Origin: Parcubacteria group bacterium
Lineage (GTDB): Bacteria > Patescibacteriota > Minisyncoccia > Moranbacterales > UBA11712
Length of the DNA stretch: 64,000 nucleotides
Assembly (NCBI GenBank): GCA_041659685.1
Contig: JBAZXV010000003.1
Coordinates: forward strand, 2,040-66,039
Direction of reading: 5' to 3'
The position numbers and the translations under genes are program-made. This document shows, piece by piece, positions 7,882 to 40,305 of the stretch. Position 1 is the stretch's first letter. Every line of letters starts with the position of its first letter. Under the pieces are notes generated by a model. The model did no database searches and was not told where the DNA came from. It worked only from the letters and a program-made list of their open reading frames with translations.

Positions 7882-8006
7882 AACAGCGCGCTGCCTATTC
7901 GGACGCGCTGTTTTCATTTGCCGAAATTCTATTTCACTCCCGCCCTCGCCCGAAATATGAGGAGTGGTAGGATAAAAGGAATAGAGGCTTCTATAGAGGC
8001 CTCTGA
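7882..8006 (+). repeat. composite repeat: hairpin+T-run, long-form core, AATAGAGGCTTCTATAGAGGCCTCTGAA
   Basis: Same family and the same orientation. Confidence 0.75.
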
Positions 8007-8102
8007 ATTTTTACCAGGATGATTCATCTATCAACTGCCGAAATATTGCTTGATTTTCAAGGCAAAAGAGAGTAGTTTGAGAAAAACCGTCAGCACAAAC
8101 CT

Positions 8103-9065
8103 ATGGCTCAAAAATCAAGCCTTCTGGCCATTCTCAAGGCAATCATCATGGTTATCTTCCTACCGATTACTTTGATTTGGATTGTTTGGAAAAAGACCGA
8201 CTGGGAAAAAAGAAACAAATGGATCGCAACCGCCGCTGTCGTGGTTGTTTTTTTGTTCATGATCCCGTCCGATGAGAAAAAAGATCCTGTTGAGCAAAAA
8301 GCGGCTACGCAAGCAGAAAATCAAGTCCGAAGCGAGAATCAATCAACTGAAACTGTTGCGACAGAAGTGGAGCAACTTGCCGGCGATCAGAAAGAAGAAA
8401 TGCAAAAACCGGAAGGAGAAATATTCAAAGTGGCTCACGTTGTTGACGGCGACACAATCAAACTCGAGAACGGCCAAGTGGTGCGATATATTGGAATTGA
8501 TACTCCGGAAACAGTCGATCCCAGAAAACCGGTGCAATGTTTTGGAAAGGAAGCGAGCTCCAAAAACAAAGAGCTGGTCGAAGGAAAAGAGGTGAGGCTC
8601 GTGAAAGATGTTTCCGAAACTGACAAATATGACCGGCTTCTCCGGTATATTTATGTCGGTGATATTTTCGTGAATGATTATCTCGCGCGAAACGGCTTTG
8701 CCAAATCTTCGACTTATCCGCCGGATGTGAAATATCAGGAACAATTCAAAAAAGCCGAAGAAGAAGCGAGAATCAATAAGCGGGGCCTATGGGCCGAAGG
8801 CGCTTGTCAAACCGAAACCGCACCCGAGGAAAAAACTCCAGCCTCATCCCCCGCCCCGTCGACCCAGGCTCCGGCACCAGCGAGCGTGACCGCACCCGTT
8901 CAATCGACGACTCCAAGCTCAACCGGAACTTTTGCCTGCAACTGCTCGAAAACCTGTCCTCAAATGAGCTCCTGCGCCGAAGCTCAATATCAGCTCAATG
9001 TCTGCGGCTGCACGAGAAGAGACGCCGACCACGACGGCATCGCCTGCGACGCGGATTGCCAGTGA
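8103..9065 (+). CDS. membrane-anchored thermonuclease (SNase family) with C-terminal Excalibur Ca-binding domain
   Basis: SNase motifs (VVDGDTIKL, RYIGIDTPE, DRLLRYIYV) are present. The N-terminus has a TM helix. The C-terminus has a Cys-rich DxDxDGxxC Excalibur signature (DADHDGIACDADC). Confidence 0.85.
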   Translation: MAQKSSLLAILKAIIMVIFLPITLIWIVWKKTDWEKRNKWIATAAVVVVFLFMIPSDEKKDPVEQKAATQAENQVRSENQSTETVATEVEQLAGDQKEEMQKPEGEIFKVAHVVDGDTIKLENGQVVRYIGIDTPETVDPRKPVQCFGKEASSKNKELVEGKEVRLVKDVSETDKYDRLLRYIYVGDIFVNDYLARNGFAKSSTYPPDVKYQEQFKKAEEEARINKRGLWAEGACQTETAPEEKTPASSPAPSTQAPAPASVTAPVQSTTPSSTGTFACNCSKTCPQMSSCAEAQYQLNVCGCTRRDADHDGIACDADCQ

Positions 9066-9114
9066 TTGATTCCTAAGGGTCAACTTTCGGAGAGGTTAAG
9101 GTTTTGAATAAAAA

Positions 9115-9894
9115 ATGATTAAACGCTTTTTTGATAAAATAATTATCATCATTCTTATCCTTGAAATAAGTTGGTTTATTTTTATTTATTCCCATAATAG
9201 TACTCTTATTCAAGATATTTTAAAAAACATAAAAACGGATGCGTGGACTGCCATAGGGACTATATTTTTGGGCATGGTAGCATTACTTACGTTTTTCTAT
9301 GACAGATATAAAAATAGAAGAGCAAAAGTATCTATGTTAATTAACACCGTTCCGCCTGACTGTCATCAAATCGAACTTACCAATTCAAAAACTGGAGAAT
9401 TTATTTCGCAAAGTATCTATATAAGAATAAGAGTTGAACACATAGGAGGAAATTCTGCCGAAGATGCCGAAATAATGGTTTCAAATTTTTGGATTGTTAA
9501 TGATCATGGGGGGAAAATTGTAAAAAAAGCCTTTCTTCCGATGAATCTCACATGGAGTCATTTTGGCGGAAAAAAAAGGAGCGTACCCCGAGGACTATTT
9601 AGATACTGTGATTTTGGAAGATTTCAACCAAAATATACAAATAATACCCATACTATATTGCGGCTAGACACTGCAGTCCAACCCAATAGAGTGAGCGACG
9701 GTGAAATTCCCAATGTTATCGAGCCCGGAAAATATGAATTCGAGCTTATTCTTAGCGGCGTAAATTCAAATTTCATAAGAAAAAGATGGATTTTAGAGTT
9801 TAAAAAAAATTGGAGCGATGATGAAAGCGAAATGCTTAATGAACATATAATAATAAAGGAGAGAAAATGGTATAATTTTTTTGCGAATATTTAG
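9115..9894 (+). CDS. hypothetical membrane protein (2 N-terminal TM helices) in an AT-rich island
   Basis: Very AT-rich ORF. Its stop is 3 nt from the start of the next gene (operon). Confidence 0.55.
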   Translation: MIKRFFDKIIIIILILEISWFIFIYSHNSTLIQDILKNIKTDAWTAIGTIFLGMVALLTFFYDRYKNRRAKVSMLINTVPPDCHQIELTNSKTGEFISQSIYIRIRVEHIGGNSAEDAEIMVSNFWIVNDHGGKIVKKAFLPMNLTWSHFGGKKRSVPRGLFRYCDFGRFQPKYTNNTHTILRLDTAVQPNRVSDGEIPNVIEPGKYEFELILSGVNSNFIRKRWILEFKKNWSDDESEMLNEHIIIKERKWYNFFANI

Positions 9895-9897
9895 AAT

Positions 9898-10416
9898 ATG
9901 GACAAAGAAAAAATTATTCAGCCACATGCCAGAGGCGAATATGATAAACTTAATGATTGCTATGAGGGGTTAGCTCAAAAAGTGACAGACTCATTGAATG
10001 AAACAGAAATTGGGATTTATTCTGATTGTTTTTTGCTTCATGCTAGAAATTTAATTGATTTTTTGTGCAATAAAGAGAAAAAAGACTATTTCAAGTGTCC
10101 AAAATGTAAATTACATATTTCAAGAGGCTATACACCCGATGATGTGGTTGCATCTGATTTCTTCTGCGATAAAAATCCACCCTCGAAAAAAACAGATATC
10201 CTTACCGAAGCAGAATATGACAGAATTAATAAACAACTTTCTCATATAACCCGTGCACGTTTGAAAGGTCAAATTAATTTTTTTGATGAAAGAAAATTAT
10301 TTGAAAGTATCTTTAATAATATTAAGGACGAATTGAAAAATTTTGATCAAAAAATAAATCAAGAATACGATTCATTGAAAGCCCGAGACTTAAGAATAAT
10401 TGACAGAGAATCTTAA
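9898..10416 (+). CDS. hypothetical protein, possibly HEPN-like (CxxC plus R-x6-H motif)
   Basis: 172-aa ORF translationally coupled to 9115..9894. Contains CPKC and RINKQLSH (Rx6H) motifs. The HEPN assignment is an inference only. Confidence 0.5.
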   Translation: MDKEKIIQPHARGEYDKLNDCYEGLAQKVTDSLNETEIGIYSDCFLLHARNLIDFLCNKEKKDYFKCPKCKLHISRGYTPDDVVASDFFCDKNPPSKKTDILTEAEYDRINKQLSHITRARLKGQINFFDERKLFESIFNNIKDELKNFDQKINQEYDSLKARDLRIIDRES

Positions 10417-10426
10417 AAAATTAAAT

Positions 10427-10455
10427 AAAATAGAACTTCTATAGAGTCTCCCAAG
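10427..10455 (+). repeat. degenerate copy of the double-palindrome repeat (AAATAGAACTTCTATAGAGTCTC)
   Basis: Similar to the TAGAAGCTTCTATAGAGGCCTCTA family. Confidence 0.55.
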
Positions 10456-10596
10456 TTTCAATTTGAGCGAAGCACGAGTGAAAAGCAGTTTTTTTGACTA
10501 TTTAGATCTTCTGTGGTAGCCTTTTTCGCTAAAAGTAGGTTACTGCATTAAGCGTATAAATTATTAAGATAGTATCAATTGTGATATAATAAAACT

Positions 10597-11205
10597 ATGT
10601 TTGATGACAGAAAAGCGACACAATTACTGAATTATCTTGCACAAAAAGAAGGTGGCAAGATTAACTTCTTAAAGTCGATGAAACTTGTTTATCTCATTGA
10701 TAAGTTTCATTTGAGAAAATACGGCAAAACAATTACAGGCGACCTTTATTATGCAATGAGTAAGGGTCCAGTTGCTTCAAATACTAAAGATATTTGCAAG
10801 TATATACTTCGAGATGATATGGACTATGGAAAAAATGACTATTATGACAAATACATAAAAAAAGGTCGAGTAAAGTTTACTCTTCAATCTATTCAACAGC
10901 CCGACCTTGAGTATTTCTCCGAAGTAGAGATTGAATCTATAGATGCGGTATATGAACAATTCAAGGGTTTCAGCGGTTTTAAATTAGTTGACATTACTCA
11001 CGACACATTTGAATGGAAATGCAAAAGTGAATTTTTAAAAAAAGGAGCCTTGAGAGAGCAAATGAGGTTAAGTGATTTTTTAATCGATCAAAGATATTCT
11101 GAAAGAAGCCCCTTAAGAATATTCAATACAACAAAAACTGATTTAGAAAGGGTTTCAAAAACTTATGATCTAATTAGAAATACTCGGCTGTCTTGTGAAT
11201 GTTGA
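10597..11205 (+). CDS. Panacea-domain (DUF4065 / SocA-like) protein, putative PanA antitoxin
   Basis: N-terminal region LLNYLAQKEGG..KLVYLID..YG..ITGDLYYAMSKGPV matches the DUF4065 signature (KL.Y.....G......A...GPV). Confidence 0.72.
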   Translation: MFDDRKATQLLNYLAQKEGGKINFLKSMKLVYLIDKFHLRKYGKTITGDLYYAMSKGPVASNTKDICKYILRDDMDYGKNDYYDKYIKKGRVKFTLQSIQQPDLEYFSEVEIESIDAVYEQFKGFSGFKLVDITHDTFEWKCKSEFLKKGALREQMRLSDFLIDQRYSERSPLRIFNTTKTDLERVSKTYDLIRNTRLSCEC

Positions 11206-11214
11206 TTGAATACT

Positions 11215-11673
11215 ATGAAGCGCATCAAGCAGATTGAAGAAGAAATTACTAAGGGTGTTGGTGCAGTTTTCAGATTCATAAACCCAGAATATTCAACGAG
11301 CATTCACCACTTTAAAATTCTTATAGGTATTGATAAATCGAAAGCAAAAGATGTTTTGCTTTTTCTAACCTGCACCTCAAAAAGTATTGTGATGAGAAGC
11401 TATGTGTTGATAAGTAATGTATTAATTATAAATAAAGATGAATATTGCGAATTAAGTGAAGAAACCTCAATTTTATGTAATGATATTGAAACTGTAAATA
11501 TTGATGACCTAGTTGGAAAATATCTCTCAGATTGCGAATTTAAGGTTTGCGAACGAATTAGTGATGATTTGTTAATTCGCATTTACCAAGTTATAAAAGA
11601 TTCGAGAGAGGTTAGCAAAAAACATAAAAAAATTATAAGAAAAAATTTGAACCAGAAAGGGATCATTGATTGA
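11215..11673 (+). CDS. hypothetical protein, candidate cognate toxin of the upstream Panacea antitoxin
   Basis: The ORF begins 10 nt after the stop of 10597..11205. No recognisable domain. The role is inferred from gene-pair architecture. Confidence 0.5.
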   Translation: MKRIKQIEEEITKGVGAVFRFINPEYSTSIHHFKILIGIDKSKAKDVLLFLTCTSKSIVMRSYVLISNVLIINKDEYCELSEETSILCNDIETVNIDDLVGKYLSDCEFKVCERISDDLLIRIYQVIKDSREVSKKHKKIIRKNLNQKGIID

Positions 11674-11700
11674 CGTTGCACAATTAATTCGAAACTATTA

Positions 11701-11778
11701 ACGGCCCGTAAGGCCTGTTTTTCTTTTTTTATGACTCTGTTAAAATGAAATAGAAGCTTCTATAGAGGCCTCTAAAAG
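11701..11778 (+). repeat. composite repeat: GGCCCGTAAGGCC hairpin + T-run, CTCTGTTAAAATGAAA, double palindrome
   Basis: Near-identical to 17322-17390. Confidence 0.75.
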
Positions 11779-11801
11779 TTTCAAATTATAGATTTTTAAA
11801 T

Positions 11802-12410
11802 ATGAAAAATAAATTTCAGATCTGTGTTTGCGGATGGTATTATTATCCAGAGTTTTATAAAGCCCTGCTTAGAGTCAAAGATAAATTCAGCATTATTGTA
11901 ATTGGAAATAAAGAAGGAGAAGTTTTTAATTTGCCTTTTGTCTTGAGAAACAATATCGGTTTGGATTGGGGTGCTTATTCTTTTTTTCTTGATAATAAAT
12001 GGGACGGCAAATCAAATGTTTTGTTTATGCAGGACGATTCAACAGTTTCTGATGGTTTTTTTGAGGAAATGTCCAAAATTTCTTTCGACCAAGCCTTTAT
12101 ATTTCGCAACCAAAAAGAGTTTGAAGAAAATTATAGCCACGGGAGAGCTTTTTTCGCTTCCGGAAAATTTCTTAAAAACTTGAATGAAGATGGCGGGATT
12201 TTGTTTGATGAAGGCAACAATGGTTTCATCGCCAAAGGGACTTCTTGGTCAGAAAAGCCGCCCAAGGGTTGCCAAGACCATAATGCGGGAATAAGAGACT
12301 TTACTTCAAAAGTTAAACGAATCGGTGAAAATAATCCTGAACTATCGGTAAATAAACAAGTTTATTCTGAAAAAGTGCGCTTGGGAAGAAGAGGAGTAAT
12401 CAGTAGATAA
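11802..12410 (+). CDS. hypothetical protein (Cys-rich N-terminus CVCGWYYYPEFY)
   Basis: 202-aa ORF in the AT-rich island. No domain recognised. Confidence 0.5.
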   Translation: MKNKFQICVCGWYYYPEFYKALLRVKDKFSIIVIGNKEGEVFNLPFVLRNNIGLDWGAYSFFLDNKWDGKSNVLFMQDDSTVSDGFFEEMSKISFDQAFIFRNQKEFEENYSHGRAFFASGKFLKNLNEDGGILFDEGNNGFIAKGTSWSEKPPKGCQDHNAGIRDFTSKVKRIGENNPELSVNKQVYSEKVRLGRRGVISR

Positions 12411-12446
12411 TTGATTTGGATAGTGATAAAATAAAAGAAGAAATTT

Positions 12447-13463
12447 ATGGAGAAAAATAATTTTAGCCAAGGCGAGATAGTCATCTATAAAACCCCTCAA
12501 AAAGAGGTGGAATTGAAAGTGCGTTTTGAAAAAGAAAATATCTGGTTGAATCAAAATCAAATCGCCCTACTTTTTGGCACGCAGAGGCCGGCAATCACCA
12601 AACATCTAAAGAATATTTTTGAAAGCGGAGAGCTTAAGGAAAAAGTGGTTAGTTCCATTTTGGAACTAACCACCGAGCATGGGGCCATCAAAGGAAAAAC
12701 GCAAACAAACAAGGTGAAATTTTATAATTTGGACGCTGTCATTTCTGTTGGCTATAGAGTAAATTCCCAAAGAGCCACGCAGTTTCGAATATGGGCGACC
12801 AAAATTTTGAAGCAATATTTGGTCAAGGGCTATGCCATCCATGAAAAACGCCTTTTGGAGACCCAAAGCAAATTTCATGAACTGCAAGAGTCGATTTTGT
12901 TTTTGCAAAAACAGTCAAAAAAGAAATTGCTGAAAGGCCAGGAAACGGAAATTTTGAATTTGCTTTCTGATTATTCCAAGACCCTCACTTTGCTGGAAAA
13001 ATACGACAAAGAAAAACTGGGCAGCCCCAAAGGAGCAAAAACAAAATTTGTTTTGAGATATGCCGATTGCGCGGGAATCATCGCCAAGCTCAAAAAAGAG
13101 CTGATTGCCAAAAAAGAGGCCGGCGATCTGTTCGGGCAGGCAAGAGGCGGAAGTTTTGAGGGGATTATCAAAGGACTTTATCAAACATTCGGCAAAAAAG
13201 AACTTTATCCATTGATCGAGGACAAAGCTTCTCATTTGCTCTATCTCATAATCAAAGATCACCCATTCTCCGACGGCAACAAGCGCTCGGCGGCGTTTTT
13301 GTTCGTCTATTTTTTGGATAAGGCAGACTATCTTTTCAAAAAGTCCGGCGAACGGAAAATCAATGACAACGCGCTCACCGCTTTGGCGCTTCTCATTGCT
13401 GAAAGCAATCCGAAAGACAAGGATGTTTTGATAAAAATCATAACCAACTTATTGGGTGATTGA
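12447..13463 (+). CDS. RhuM-family virulence protein with C-terminal Fic/Doc domain
   Basis: N-terminal RhuM-like block (IWLNQNQIALLFG..RPAITKHLKNIF..FRIWATKILKQYLVKGY) is present. The C-terminal Fic/Doc motif HPFSDGNKRSAAF matches HxFx(D/E)GNxR. Confidence 0.8.
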   Translation: MEKNNFSQGEIVIYKTPQKEVELKVRFEKENIWLNQNQIALLFGTQRPAITKHLKNIFESGELKEKVVSSILELTTEHGAIKGKTQTNKVKFYNLDAVISVGYRVNSQRATQFRIWATKILKQYLVKGYAIHEKRLLETQSKFHELQESILFLQKQSKKKLLKGQETEILNLLSDYSKTLTLLEKYDKEKLGSPKGAKTKFVLRYADCAGIIAKLKKELIAKKEAGDLFGQARGGSFEGIIKGLYQTFGKKELYPLIEDKASHLLYLIIKDHPFSDGNKRSAAFLFVYFLDKADYLFKKSGERKINDNALTALALLIAESNPKDKDVLIKIITNLLGD

Positions 13464-13487
13464 TTTTCTTTGCAAAAAATAATCAAG

Positions 13488-13512
13488 GTAGAAGCTTCTA
13501 TAGAGGCCTCTA
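13488..13512 (+). repeat. double-palindrome repeat TAGAAGCTTCTATAGAGGCCTCTA
   Basis: Perfect copy, two adjacent 12-bp palindromes. Confidence 0.8.
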
Positions 13513-13542
13513 GGAAAATAAGATATGAGAAATAAGAAATAA

Positions 13543-13580
13543 CCCCAGTTGAATGATGCGACAGAGTCGCAATTCAACGG
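13543..13580 (+). promoter_or_regulatory. about 15-bp-arm inverted repeat (GTTGAATGATGCGAC/GTCGCAATTCAAC) abutting the RBS of the small AbrB-like gene
   Basis: Seen directly. A related IR lies upstream of the decayed copy at 20630-20663. Confidence 0.5.
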
Positions 13581-13591
13581 AGTAAAAAAAT

Positions 13592-13762
13592 ATGGCTGAG
13601 AAAAAAGGTATAATCAAGCTTAAGAAAGCGAGTGCGTATAGTTTTTCCGTGACCATCCCGAAAGAAATCATCGAGAAATATAAATGGAGGGAAAAACAAA
13701 AGCTGGTCGTCACCGACAAAGGCCGCGGGAAGATAGAGATCAGCGATTGGCGGAGGAAGTGA
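13592..13762 (+). CDS. small AbrB/MazE/SpoVT-like (looped-hinge helix) DNA-binding protein, multicopy family
   Basis: 56 aa, below the ORF-track cutoff. Motif SFSVTIPKEIIEKY...DKGRGKIEISDWRR resembles the swapped-hairpin AbrB fold. A paralog lies at 18396..18575. Confidence 0.6.
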   Translation: MAEKKGIIKLKKASAYSFSVTIPKEIIEKYKWREKQKLVVTDKGRGKIEISDWRRK

Positions 13763-13820
13763 TCTTGGATAGAAAAACACTTTATTGCAAAAACACCGAA
13801 ATATAATATAATGCTTATAT

Positions 13821-14414
13821 ATGCCAGACACAGACCCATTACAAGATCAGGAAGGATTGTTGAGCATTGAGACTCCGCTAGTGTTCGCAGATGGAACGAC
13901 TTTTTTCAAAAACCTTGCCAAGGACTACATTGTCCATGAAAGAGGTTTTTTTATTTTGGGCCCGTCTGGTGTCGGCAAAAGCCATTATTACCGCAACCAG
14001 AAAGAGGGCGAAAAGCATTGGATCGATGCAGACCGGGTATGGCGCTGGTCCAAAGCGATGCCAAAAGGAGCTTGGTGGGAAAAAGGATTGGAAGTGTCTC
14101 AAGACGTTGAGTCTAAATGCGATATTATTACTGAAGAGGCGAAAAAAAAGGGCTTTTGGCTGATCGGCTCGGCCAATAATTGGCTGGTTCCGGATGCCAT
14201 CGTAATTCCGCATTGGCGCACTCATGTCAAATTCATAAAAAAAAGAGAACTCAATTTTGACGGAGGAGCGCGGTCAACTCCCAAAGATCTGGCCCAGGTA
14301 AAGAGTCACCGAAAATTAATCTCGCTTTGGGCAAAAAAAGGAGTGCCTAAGTTCAATTCCGTTGAGGAAGCGATAATGCACTTGGAAAATATTTATCATA
14401 AAAAATATAAATAA
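13821..14414 (+). CDS. P-loop NTPase (kinase-like) of unknown function
   Basis: Walker A motif GPSGVGKSH is present. The rest of the sequence is not assignable. Confidence 0.6.
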   Translation: MPDTDPLQDQEGLLSIETPLVFADGTTFFKNLAKDYIVHERGFFILGPSGVGKSHYYRNQKEGEKHWIDADRVWRWSKAMPKGAWWEKGLEVSQDVESKCDIITEEAKKKGFWLIGSANNWLVPDAIVIPHWRTHVKFIKKRELNFDGGARSTPKDLAQVKSHRKLISLWAKKGVPKFNSVEEAIMHLENIYHKKYK

Positions 14415-17484: not shown

Positions 17485-18333
17485 ATGGGAAAAAACAAAA
17501 AACAAATCGCCATTTTTGAAGGCAAAAAAATCCGCCGCCATTGGGACGGGAAAAAAGAAAAATGGTATTTTTCGGTCGTGGATATCGTTGCCGTGTTGAC
17601 AGACAGCGAAAATCCGCAGGTTTACTGGCGTGTGCTGAAAAAACGCCTGCTTGACGAGGGTTCAACTGAAACCGTTACAAAATGTAACGGTTTGAAAATG
17701 CGAGCTTCCGACGGAAAAATGAGAATAACCGATGTCGCAGACGTCGAAACACTGCTGCGGCTCGTTCAATCTGTACCGAGTCCAAAAGCCGAACCGATCA
17801 AACTCTGGCTCGCGCGGGTCGGCTATGAAAGAATGCAAGAAACGATTGATCCGGAAAAATCCATAAACAGGGCTAGGATGAACTGGCAAAGGCTCGGCCG
17901 GAGCCAAAAGTGGATCCAGCAGAGAATGATGGGCCAGGAAACCCGAAACAAGCTCACCGATTATTGGAAAGATCACGAAATCAGCCAACAAGAGGAATAT
18001 GCGATTCTGACGAATATTATTCACGAAGAATGGAGCGACCTGTCGGTGCAAGGGCACAAAAAACTGAAAGGGATCAAGGCTGAAAACCTGCGCGACCATA
18101 TGACGGAAGCAGAACTAATTTTCACGGCGCTGGCCGAACTTTCAACCCGCCAAATCGCCGAAACGGATCAGGCAACCGGATTCGAGGAAAACAAATCTCC
18201 GGCGAGAAGCGGCGGACGGATCGCCAAGCGCGCCCGGCTGGATCTGGAAAGAAAAACCGGAAAAAAGATTGTGACCAAAGAAAATTTCAAATTGCCAGGC
18301 GGAAAAACCAAACAAATTCGCAACAGGAAATAA
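17485..18333 (+). CDS. DNA-damage-inducible protein D-like / Bro-N domain protein
   Basis: N-terminal Bro-N-like region (IRRHWDGKKEKWYFSVVDIVAVLT). The C-terminal region aligns by eye with DinD. Confidence 0.65.
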   Translation: MGKNKKQIAIFEGKKIRRHWDGKKEKWYFSVVDIVAVLTDSENPQVYWRVLKKRLLDEGSTETVTKCNGLKMRASDGKMRITDVADVETLLRLVQSVPSPKAEPIKLWLARVGYERMQETIDPEKSINRARMNWQRLGRSQKWIQQRMMGQETRNKLTDYWKDHEISQQEEYAILTNIIHEEWSDLSVQGHKKLKGIKAENLRDHMTEAELIFTALAELSTRQIAETDQATGFEENKSPARSGGRIAKRARLDLERKTGKKIVTKENFKLPGGKTKQIRNRK

Positions 18334-18359
18334 AATAGAAGCTTCTATAGAGGCCTCTG
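18333..18359 (+). repeat. double-palindrome repeat
   Basis: AAATAGAAGCTTCTATAGAGGCCTCTGAAG. It overlaps the TAA stop of the upstream gene. Confidence 0.8.
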
Positions 18360-18395
18360 AAGAAATAAAATATAAAAAATAAAATGTAAAAAGTT

Positions 18396-18575
18396 ATGAC
18401 TGAGAAAAAAGGCGTCCACAAGCTTAAGAAATCGAGCGCGTATAGTTTCTCCGTGACCATCCCCAAAGAAATCGTCGAAAAATACGGCTGGAAAGAGAAG
18501 CAAAAGCTGGCAGTCATCGACAAAGGCCGCGGCGTCGTCGAGATCCGCGACTGGCGGAAGAGGCAATTCAAATAG
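18396..18575 (+). CDS. small AbrB/MazE/SpoVT-like protein, second copy
   Basis: 59 aa, about 70% identical to the 13592..13762 product. Confidence 0.6.
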   Translation: MTEKKGVHKLKKSSAYSFSVTIPKEIVEKYGWKEKQKLAVIDKGRGVVEIRDWRKRQFK

Positions 18576-38858: not shown

Positions 38859-39149
38859 GGTGCCATGCTCCGACGCAACGTCGGAGTTTAGGCGTAAATT
38901 GTTGGCTTTATTATACTATTTCAAAAAAAACGCGCAAGTAGCAAACATTCTCCCCGCACTCTTCGGGATGTTCGAGTGGATATTTTTGCACGGGGCGAAA
39001 ATACTTTGCCAGCCAAATAACTCTTTTTTTCGAATCTGGAATATCCATTTCTAAAGTTGAACTCTGAAGTGACCATGGCGGACGAATGAAAGAAAACGCT
39101 CATTTTGCAGGTATAAATAAAAAGATTGTCAATATTTTTTACACGCCTG

Positions 39150-39178
39150 TTGACAAATTATTTTACAAATATTACACT
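39150..39178 (+). promoter_or_regulatory. sigma70-type promoter TTGACA-N17-TACACT for the Panacea TA operon
   Basis: Consensus -35, 17-bp spacer. Confidence 0.55.
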
Positions 39179-39197
39179 TATGAACAACATCAACCAT

Positions 39198-39974
39198 ATG
39201 CTTGGAAAATTTATCTTAAAAAAGCGCAAAAAACTTGGCCTGACGCAGGATTTTTTGGCGTCAAAACTTGGCATTTCCCGCCCAACCTACATGCAGATAG
39301 AACAAGGAGAAAGGGATTTGACTCTTTCTGAAGCAAAAAAACTTGCGGATATATTTGGCATAGATTTCTGTCATTTTTCACAGGGTGAGGATTATGCCGT
39401 CACCGTAGAGATAGAAAAAGAAAAAAAACAAACAAAGGAAAAGGTTCCGGCGATGAGAATAAATGTCCCGCAAAAAAACCTAAAGAAATTCAAGGAAGTT
39501 TTTCTGTATGTTTTGTCAAAAATTGGAAGCAAGCCGAATGTGGGAGAAAGCGTGATAAATAAACTTTTCTATTTTATTGATTTTGACTACTACGAAAAAT
39601 ATGAGGAACAATTAATCGGTGCGACCTATATAAAAAACCATTACGGACCCACTCCCTGCGAACTGATAAAAATAGTTGAGGAAATGAAAACGAGAGGAGA
39701 GGTGGAAGAAGTGAGGAGCAGGCATTTTGAGTTCCATCAAAAGAAATTTTTTCCTTTGCGCAAGCCTGATTTGAGCATACTCACCGCAAGAGAAATAGAG
39801 CACATAGACGACGTTTTAAACAGGCTTTCTGACAAAAACGCGCGGGAAATTCGCGATTATTCCCACGAGGACGTTCCTTACAAGGTCCATAAAGACGGAG
39901 AAAAAATTGACTACGAAAGCGTTTTTTATCGCGATGAAAAATATTCAGTAAGAAGTTATGACGATGAACTATAG
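39198..39974 (+). CDS. HTH-XRE + Panacea (DUF4065) fusion protein, putative PanA-type antitoxin
   Basis: HTH block LGLTQDFLASKLGISRPTYMQIEQGERDLTLSEAKKLADIFG. C-terminal Panacea block INKLFYFIDFDYYEKYEEQLIGATYIKNHYGPTP. Confidence 0.78.
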   Translation: MLGKFILKKRKKLGLTQDFLASKLGISRPTYMQIEQGERDLTLSEAKKLADIFGIDFCHFSQGEDYAVTVEIEKEKKQTKEKVPAMRINVPQKNLKKFKEVFLYVLSKIGSKPNVGESVINKLFYFIDFDYYEKYEEQLIGATYIKNHYGPTPCELIKIVEEMKTRGEVEEVRSRHFEFHQKKFFPLRKPDLSILTAREIEHIDDVLNRLSDKNAREIRDYSHEDVPYKVHKDGEKIDYESVFYRDEKYSVRSYDDEL

Positions 39975-40305
39975 CGAGCTGCCTGAATTTTCCAGGGAAT
40001 TTAAAAAATACTCCGCCAAAAAATACAGGACACTGCAAAAAGATTTAGATAATTTCAAAAAAATAACCGATTCGATCCCGACGGGAACGGGGAAACATTT
40101 TAACGTCCTGTTTTCAAACAGCGAAATAAAAATCATCAAGGCGCGGCTGTTTTGCAGGACTCTGAAAGGATCGTCTATGAGAATAATCTACTGCTTTTTT
40201 CAAAATGCGAATAAAATTGAATTTATTGAAATATATTTCAAGGGCGACAAAGAAAACGAAAATCGGGAAAGAATAAGGGATTATATCAAGAATTTTGAAA
40301 TTTAA
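39958..40305 (+). CDS. RelE/ParE-superfamily (HigB/Gp49-like) toxin candidate
   Basis: Overlaps the antitoxin gene by 17 nt. The RIIYCFFQNANKIEFIEIYFKGD pattern resembles RelE/Gp49 (RiiY.f.....i.ll.if.K). Confidence 0.6.
   Translation: MTMNYSELPEFSREFKKYSAKKYRTLQKDLDNFKKITDSIPTGTGKHFNVLFSNSEIKIIKARLFCRTLKGSSMRIIYCFFQNANKIEFIEIYFKGDKENENRERIRDYIKNFEI

Follow-up and report, generated by a model that had tools for sequence, protein, structure and literature searches.

Two previously unannotated gene families that recur beside restriction-modification genes stand side by side in a Parcubacteria genome

PrrC, a HEPN nuclease encoded in the EcoprrI type Ic hsd locus, has been proposed to stay silent until its restriction enzyme is inhibited by phage (PMC3710099; PMC12707154). 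At least 16 HEPN clades are embedded in restriction-modification (R-M) operons, including an operon that combines a methylase, the HEPN protein MAE_28990 and a ParB/DUF262 protein, and RhuM/Doc genes are co-located with R-M and HEPN neighborhoods (PMC3710099). Here, we describe two adjacent genes, A and B, in a 64,000-nucleotide stretch of Parcubacteria-group DNA (contig JBAZXV010000003.1; hereafter the window). Their products are called 'hypothetical protein' (WC831_02425 and WC831_02430) in the source metagenome-assembled genome (MAG). A sequence-only reading of the window had proposed that they form a two-gene defense operon of a membrane protein and a HEPN-like protein. We find that A and B represent two previously unannotated families of a kind already known, that of R-M-linked accessory genes. 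In the reading we favor, to which we give a probability of roughly 0.55, they are two unrelated, independently moving single-gene modules, R-M-linked second-line accessory effectors, that came to lie side by side by chance.

The likeness to PrrC lies in the setting. PrrC is an accessory gene in a type I hsd operon, homologs of A lie between hsdS and hsdR, and homologs of B lie beside R-M and GmrSD genes. Unlike PrrC, which has an N-terminal ABC ATPase, A and B are without this domain, and neither shows sequence similarity to it. Also in contrast to PrrC, A is a membrane-anchored beta-sandwich protein and not a nuclease, and the window copies lie outside any R-M operon. B can further be compared with MAE_28990, Abi2/AbiD/AbiF, AbiU2 and Ymh (PF09509), small helical HEPN proteins that stand alone in R-M operons. 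It shares with them a four-helix layout, an insert between helices 2 and 3, and a His at the end of helix 3. However, B has N-x4-H with a mostly basic residue at -7 instead of the strict R-[NDH]-x3-5-H, carries extra, essentially invariant residues (H48 and R50 on helix 2, and R121), and gave no significant Pfam HEPN match when about 150 members of its family were scanned. The comparison for A is Cap15, a transmembrane (TM)-anchored effector of the cyclic-oligonucleotide-based anti-phage signaling system, which has two TM helices and a beta-barrel. In both proteins, a compact, beta-rich domain, probably cytoplasmic in A, comes after TM helices at the N-terminus, and both occur in a defense context. 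A differs in that no cyclase or other signal-producing gene lies near it, it has no PADLOC match, and its domain is an immunoglobulin (Ig)-like sandwich with a Cys/His/Asp cluster. The 50 best Foldseek PDB matches listed for A do not include Cap15. The methylase plus DUF262-type nuclease setting and the RhuM/Doc co-location known from HEPN genes both recur near A or B.

Both A and B are real genes and not chance open reading frames (ORFs), as families of homologs were found for each. A has at least 80 homologs (35-76% identity). For B, seven homologs were found from the single sequence, and a profile found 158-169 cluster representatives (E<=1e-3). Neither query had a significant match in Pfam, NCBIfam, PHROGs or PADLOC, and no PDB sequence matched A or B, even with the family profiles. 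Pfam and PADLOC scans over 50-102 members per family gave nothing consistent; with PADLOC-DB v2, only scattered single matches were obtained over 50 members of the A family and 102 of the B family. One A-family member scored against type I S-subunit models, and a fused or mis-called start is the probable cause. Together, the families occur in Patescibacteria, Bacteroidales, Deltaproteobacteria, Nitrospira, Planctomycetota and Mycobacterium marinum; the A family was found in the first five of these and in Acidobacteriota. Since this spread is patchy, it points to horizontal transfer of both families. The A family was absent from plasmid and phage collections and occurred once in 2.9 million viral contigs, and no B-family member was found in the viral contigs, phages or plasmids searched.

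A and B are not a conserved two-gene system, and this part of the sequence-only reading falls. Loci for both families were gathered, and their ORFs were called and searched with hidden Markov models of both families, covering, besides the window, 38 loci for A and 38 for B. The two genes occur together only in the window; 0 of the about 76 other loci has both. The closest homologs have other neighbors as well. Downstream of those of A (64-76% identity), a Fic gene was found in L011 and L082 and a DUF2254 gene in L004; the L081 copy sits at the end of its contig, behind a transposase. Upstream of those of B there is GmrSD in L083, a methyltransferase in L006 and an unrelated protein of 160 aa in L084. 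When the window is compared with such loci, the similarity starts and stops at the gene itself, with no synteny beyond it. An all-against-all BLAST of the neighbors found no recurrent unknown partner for either gene; only R-M subunits, YgjP, SEC-C and Fic proteins recurred near A, and only R-M genes near B.

The two families can also be seen to replace each other. In one locus (L009, 3947-6802), an EcoRI-like methylase is followed by A and then by GmrSD-HNH. In another (L066, 1-1861), the 3' end of the same methylase is followed by B and then by GmrSD-HNH. The methylase 3' ends are 77% identical in nucleotide sequence, and the GmrSD-HNH proteins are 88% identical in amino acids. The junction is sharp. 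The common sequence ends with ...CCACAAAAATAAnATG, in which a single base separates the stop codon of the methylase from the start codon of the swapped ORF, and it begins again about 25 nt ahead of the GmrSD start. A and B are alternative occupants of one translationally coupled position in a methylase-X-GmrSD arrangement. Their alternation in this slot argues for comparable accessory roles and against a partnership.

Homologs of A were found inside type I R-M operons at eight loci, in five layouts (Table 1), usually with stop and start codons that overlap by 4 nt. The cassette with the SEC-C protein is nearly identical across MAGs of Bacteroidales, Patescibacteria and Deltaproteobacteria, which suggests that it is a mobile type I R-M unit. 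Other A homologs lie after a type III Mod gene (L017), near ResIII (L016), between the EcoRI-like methylase and GmrSD-HNH described above, among the Fic genes of L011 and L082, and after a transposase in Nitrospira moscoviensis (L037). R-M components make up about a quarter of the 107 A-flanking proteins scanned, compared with a general baseline of about 1% of genes. In one type I operon with an A homolog between hsdS and hsdR, a Ymh (PF09509) gene was observed between hsdM and hsdS (L030:4026-4784); Ymh is counted as a HEPN family in the literature (PMC3710099).

R-M-type neighbors were present at 10 of the 38 B loci, even with 13 of these loci spanning less than 2 kb. Both families thus recurrently adjoin R-M and other defense genes, and the expectation of a defense-island context in related genomes was borne out. 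In Mycobacterium marinum (L088), the B-family gene is followed by a GmrSD_C gene and a Panacea pair, and the locus also has an integrase and a RelA/SpoT-like gene. Another B locus (L090) holds NYN, HD, Bro-N and RhuM-Fic genes; its RhuM-Fic gene (9875-10417) lies about 4.5 kb from the B homolog and is similar to the RhuM-Fic gene of the window. At two B loci (L084:1381-1977 and L051:4086-4700), the gene directly downstream carries a canonical HEPN-style motif, KIRNNFVH and FRHKIVH, respectively, and has no Pfam match. From these sequences, it is probable that B-family genes sometimes adjoin other HEPN proteins.

In the M. marinum locus (L088:4274-5537; PEDH01000158.1), a gene 8 nt upstream of the B-family gene encodes a 239-aa protein that is like A in architecture, having two TM helices at its N-terminus and a beta-rich domain. 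It was tried as a relative of A and rejected, as hmmsearch gave no match and hhalign a probability of 0.2%. A membrane protein upstream of B as a general theme was rejected too, since about 8 of 28 B loci had one, which is roughly the proteome background.

Table 1. Features of the window (coordinates in window positions) and gene arrangements at homologous loci
Feature	Position or locus	Strand	Basis
Gene A, 259-aa membrane-anchored beta-sandwich protein, unannotated family	9115..9894	+	ORF; stop TAG 9892-9894
Gene B, 172-aa soluble four-helix-bundle protein, unannotated family	9898..10416	+	ORF; ATG at 9898
A, two N-terminal TM helices, about aa 6-24 and 43-61	9130..9297	+	Hydropathy scan; model helices 2-28, 41-66
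A, Ig-like beta-sandwich domain, aa 70-250	9322..9864	+	Model strands; P81-D-C-H84, Y102/R104, F140-L-P...W147-S-H149, R163-x-C165-D166, Y207 conserved
B, helix-2 motif D43-C-F-L-L-H48-A-R50-N51-L-I-D-F55	10024..10062	+	102 family members
B, CPKC (aa 67-70) inside variable helix 2-3 insert	10096..10107	+	Sequence; family alignment; model
B, motif region including RINKQLSH (aa 109-116) and R121	10222..10260	+	102-member conservation; model helices
Membrane-anchored staphylococcal-nuclease-like protein with Excalibur domain	8103..9065	+	Pfam SNase 8.4e-25, Excalibur 7.3e-5
SocA/Panacea antitoxin-like gene (10597-11205) abutting 155-aa ORF (11206-11673)	10597..11673	+	PF13274 E=5e-23
RhuM-Fic fusion protein	12447..13463	+	Pfam RhuM 8.5e-25, Fic 3.6e-9; PADLOC candidate PDC-S23 2.8e-121
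hsdS - SEC-C protein - A - hsdR - YgjP	L020, L021, L023, L024		Each from a different higher taxon
hsdM - unknown - hsdS - A - unknown - hsdR	L027
hsdM - Ymh - hsdS - A - hsdR	L030
hsdM - hsdS - A	L015
hsdM - hsdS - hsdR - A	L026
B neighbors: methylase and Tsp45I	L051, L053
B neighbors: Eco57I-type enzymes	L057, L062, L071
B neighbor: fused methylase-S protein	L073
B neighbors: methylase and HNH	L006
B neighbor: GmrSD	L066, L083, L088

In the AlphaFold model of A (per-residue confidence, pLDDT, 90.8), N-terminal helices are followed by a beta-sandwich. Having two TM helices is a trait of the window protein's closest subfamily. Of 50 family members, 42 have just one, and of the two helices in the window protein only the second is shared throughout the family. 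The 15 residues that follow the last TM helix have a K+R count of 3.7, compared with 1.2 in the 15 that precede it, and under the positive-inside rule this probably places the C-terminal sandwich in the cytoplasm. In 34 loci with identities as low as 24-30%, R104, F140, P142, L145, W147, H149, D166 and Y207 are invariant, and P81, D82, C83, H84, Y102, S148, C165, G168, D185 and N217 are nearly so. The conserved Asp, Cys, His and Arg residues likely mark a putative metal-binding, ligand-binding or catalytic site. Against the PDB, Foldseek returned only generic Ig-like sandwiches with weak scores (E about 0.01), namely GH2 Ig domains, Asf1, arrestin and the Kir C-terminal domain. Two A-family genes were observed to be split. 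One consists of two consecutive ORFs (L012:6088-6650), through a frameshift or an assembly error, and the other is interrupted by a 323-aa ORF (L045:5977-7733); both are possibly pseudogenes.

The AlphaFold model of B (pLDDT 86.7, predicted template-modeling score 0.83) has helices at aa 3-26, 35-57, 104-114 (continued by 119-123) and 132-156. Conservation is low in the insert that separates helices 2 and 3 (aa 58-103); most members have a short one or none, and model confidence there is about 65. Among 102 members, H48, F55, H116 and R121 are invariant (102/102 each), R50 and E/D43 are conserved in 101/102, and E14 and F45 are nearly invariant. N111, at -5 from H116, is found in 80/102. Position 109 is R in 44/102 and K in 34/102, and so is basic in 78/102 (76%); the residue after it is I/L, which is hydrophobic. 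Both motifs pointed out by the sequence-only reading, CPKC and RINKQLSH, are therefore present in B, but they do not define the family: the former lies in the variable insert, and the Arg of the latter varies while its His does not.

HEPN domains are defined as four-helix up-down bundles with a variable insert between helices 2 and 3. Their Rx4-6H motif, whose R is directly followed by a polar residue, closes helix 3 or opens the loop that leads to helix 4, and helix 2 has a conserved acidic residue near the motif, typically in E-x3-[KR] (PMC3710099). B has the predicted four-helix layout with a variable helix 2-3 insert. The position of its invariant His, placed just after helix 3 in the model, agrees with the motif; the Arg fits loosely, and the following residue is I/L, not polar. 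The acidic residue on helix 2 is there (E/D43), but its spacing to R50 is x6, not x3. As modeled, the B fold fits the published HEPN description in topology and insert, and in part in the motif, through the His position, and in the helix-2 acidic residue, and by analogy B is probably a ribonuclease (RNase). The sequence-only reading had named two findings that would count against it, a structure without a HEPN-like bundle and homologs in core contexts; what we found is a predicted bundle and homologs beside defense genes. Its HEPN-like call stands for topology and His position and lacks a significant match, by sequence or structure, to any HEPN family. PDB and BFVD searches with B, like the Pfam scan, gave no significant HEPN match. 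Profile-profile comparison of B with the Ymh protein of L030 and the two HEPN-motif neighbors gave nothing informative, the templates being single sequences, and a HepT neighbor of B used as a phmmer seed found no PDB relatives. In rare fusions, the B domain is joined to a cytidine/dCMP-deaminase domain (P0095), a HAD hydrolase (P0119) or two C-terminal TM helices (P0103).

In the window, the ORF lengths, the 3-nt gap and the two TM helices of A are all as first described, according to ORF calls, hydropathy and AlphaFold. The stop codon of A, the gap (AAT) and the ATG of B are consecutive, and from this gap A and B are likely co-transcribed, as a local feature of the window. The much lower GC of the genes was also confirmed. 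GC is 0.29-0.37 over 9001-12500, compared with 0.51 at 8501-9000 and 0.42-0.48 beyond 13000. By gene, it is 0.33 for A, 0.30 for B, 0.30-0.35 for the three genes after B, and 0.41 for the RhuM-Fic gene, which sits 2 kb downstream of B. The upstream nuclease gene (0.49) lies outside the low-GC block. The island context holds as well, as the SocA/Panacea antitoxin-like gene and the RhuM-Fic gene are both present. The 155-aa ORF that abuts the former has no family match and only a weak PADLOC match ('Orf5', E=9e-4); the two are likely a PanA-toxin pair with an unclassified toxin.

Some further observations concern the rest of the window. A second Panacea protein, of 282 aa with an N-terminal XRE-type helix-turn-helix, is encoded at 39126-40300 and is 42% identical to the Panacea protein adjoining the B homolog in L057. 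It is followed by a small overlapping ORF with a translation like that of the 114-aa partner in L057. Two similar small AbrB/SpoVT-like ORFs lie at 13592-13762 and about 18290-18570, and near-identical spurious ORFs are found on the opposite strands. The first is followed by a gene for a P-loop protein with no family match (13821-14414) and may be part of another toxin-antitoxin (TA)-like module. An Rfam scan of 8000-14000 gave a single sub-threshold chance match.

From architecture and neighborhood, we infer how two independent modules of this kind could work. An effector of either family would be kept inactive by, or expressed with, the adjacent restriction enzyme, in a manner like PrrC. Once restriction failed or was inhibited, it would turn on the host cell, with the membrane as the site of action for A and RNase activity probable for B. 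The window copies would have landed side by side in a low-GC accessory block with the Panacea TA-like pair and the RhuM-Fic gene. A stronger form of this proposal is doubtful, though possible. In it, A and B would be interchangeable plug-in guardian effectors, A at the membrane and B as a divergent HEPN-like RNase, swappable in the methylase-X-nuclease slot and triggering host shutdown when the neighboring restriction enzyme is inhibited.

Several points weigh against two independent R-M-linked effectors. Some homologs of A and B are embedded in or coupled to R-M operons, whereas the window copies are not, and no recognizable R-M gene adjoins either of them. The 3-nt gap and the common low GC suggest co-transcription there. 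The yardstick for R-M enrichment was the general baseline rather than a formal control, and one common cassette accounts for four of the type I A loci. Defense islands also gather unrelated mobile genes, and neighborhood alone is weak evidence of function. The fold of A offers no functional clue. For B, in addition to the lack of a HEPN family match, R109 is not invariant, and the Foldseek matches to HepT had E values of 5-9 and template-modeling scores of 0.3-0.4.

Another possible explanation is that B is some other helical-bundle enzyme or ligand binder and not a HEPN RNase, for example with a DinB/YfiT-like metal site (E14, E/D43, H48 and H116), and that the island context of A and B reflects insertion of mobile cargo into variable regions. 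We regard this as unlikely. The absence of significant HEPN matches is consistent with it, two invariant His and conserved Glu residues could bind metal, the hydrophobic residue after R109 is unlike typical HEPN motifs, and the deaminase and HAD fusion partners are not nucleases. However, there is no DinB-family Pfam match either, the topology, variable insert and His position match the HEPN description, and the genomic setting of B mirrors that of many HEPN clades.

Distinctly unlikely, in our view, is that A and/or B are accessory parts or regulators of restriction systems; A might, for example, tether a type I enzyme to the membrane at DNA entry, and B might control nuclease expression or activity. 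The translational coupling of A to hsdS and hsdR in several layouts, the filling of the methylase-GmrSD slot by each gene, and the single A-family member that scores against S-subunit models would fit such a role. Yet most homologs, the window copies included, have no adjoining R-M genes, most type I systems, as far as is known, have no such gene, and two unrelated folds in one slot point to interchangeable cargo rather than a dedicated subunit.

The least probable account is one two-gene abortive-infection system, with A as a membrane sensor/effector coupled to B as a HEPN-like RNase: the gap, shared strand and low GC of the pair, the M. marinum membrane protein upstream of B and the TM fusion P0103 speak for it, but none of the 38 other loci of either family has the other gene, the M. 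marinum protein is not detectably related to A, upstream TM proteins are near background, and A and B replace each other in the methylase-GmrSD cassette.

If A and B are two independently moving R-M-linked effectors, two unannotated families would join the small set of accessory genes inside R-M operons, among which PrrC is, to our knowledge, the only well-studied one. If that inference fails, they are two more hypothetical genes in a variable region. The L009 and L066 loci form a natural experiment, in which the same methylase and GmrSD nuclease have either A or B between them, and it bears on whether genes in such a slot protect restriction enzymes from phage anti-restriction. Patescibacteria have, as far as we know, few known defenses beyond R-M, and A and B, if they are effectors, would enlarge this sparse repertoire; under the stronger, plug-in guardian form of the proposal, they would be two new single-gene defense families prominent in the Candidate Phyla Radiation (Patescibacteria).

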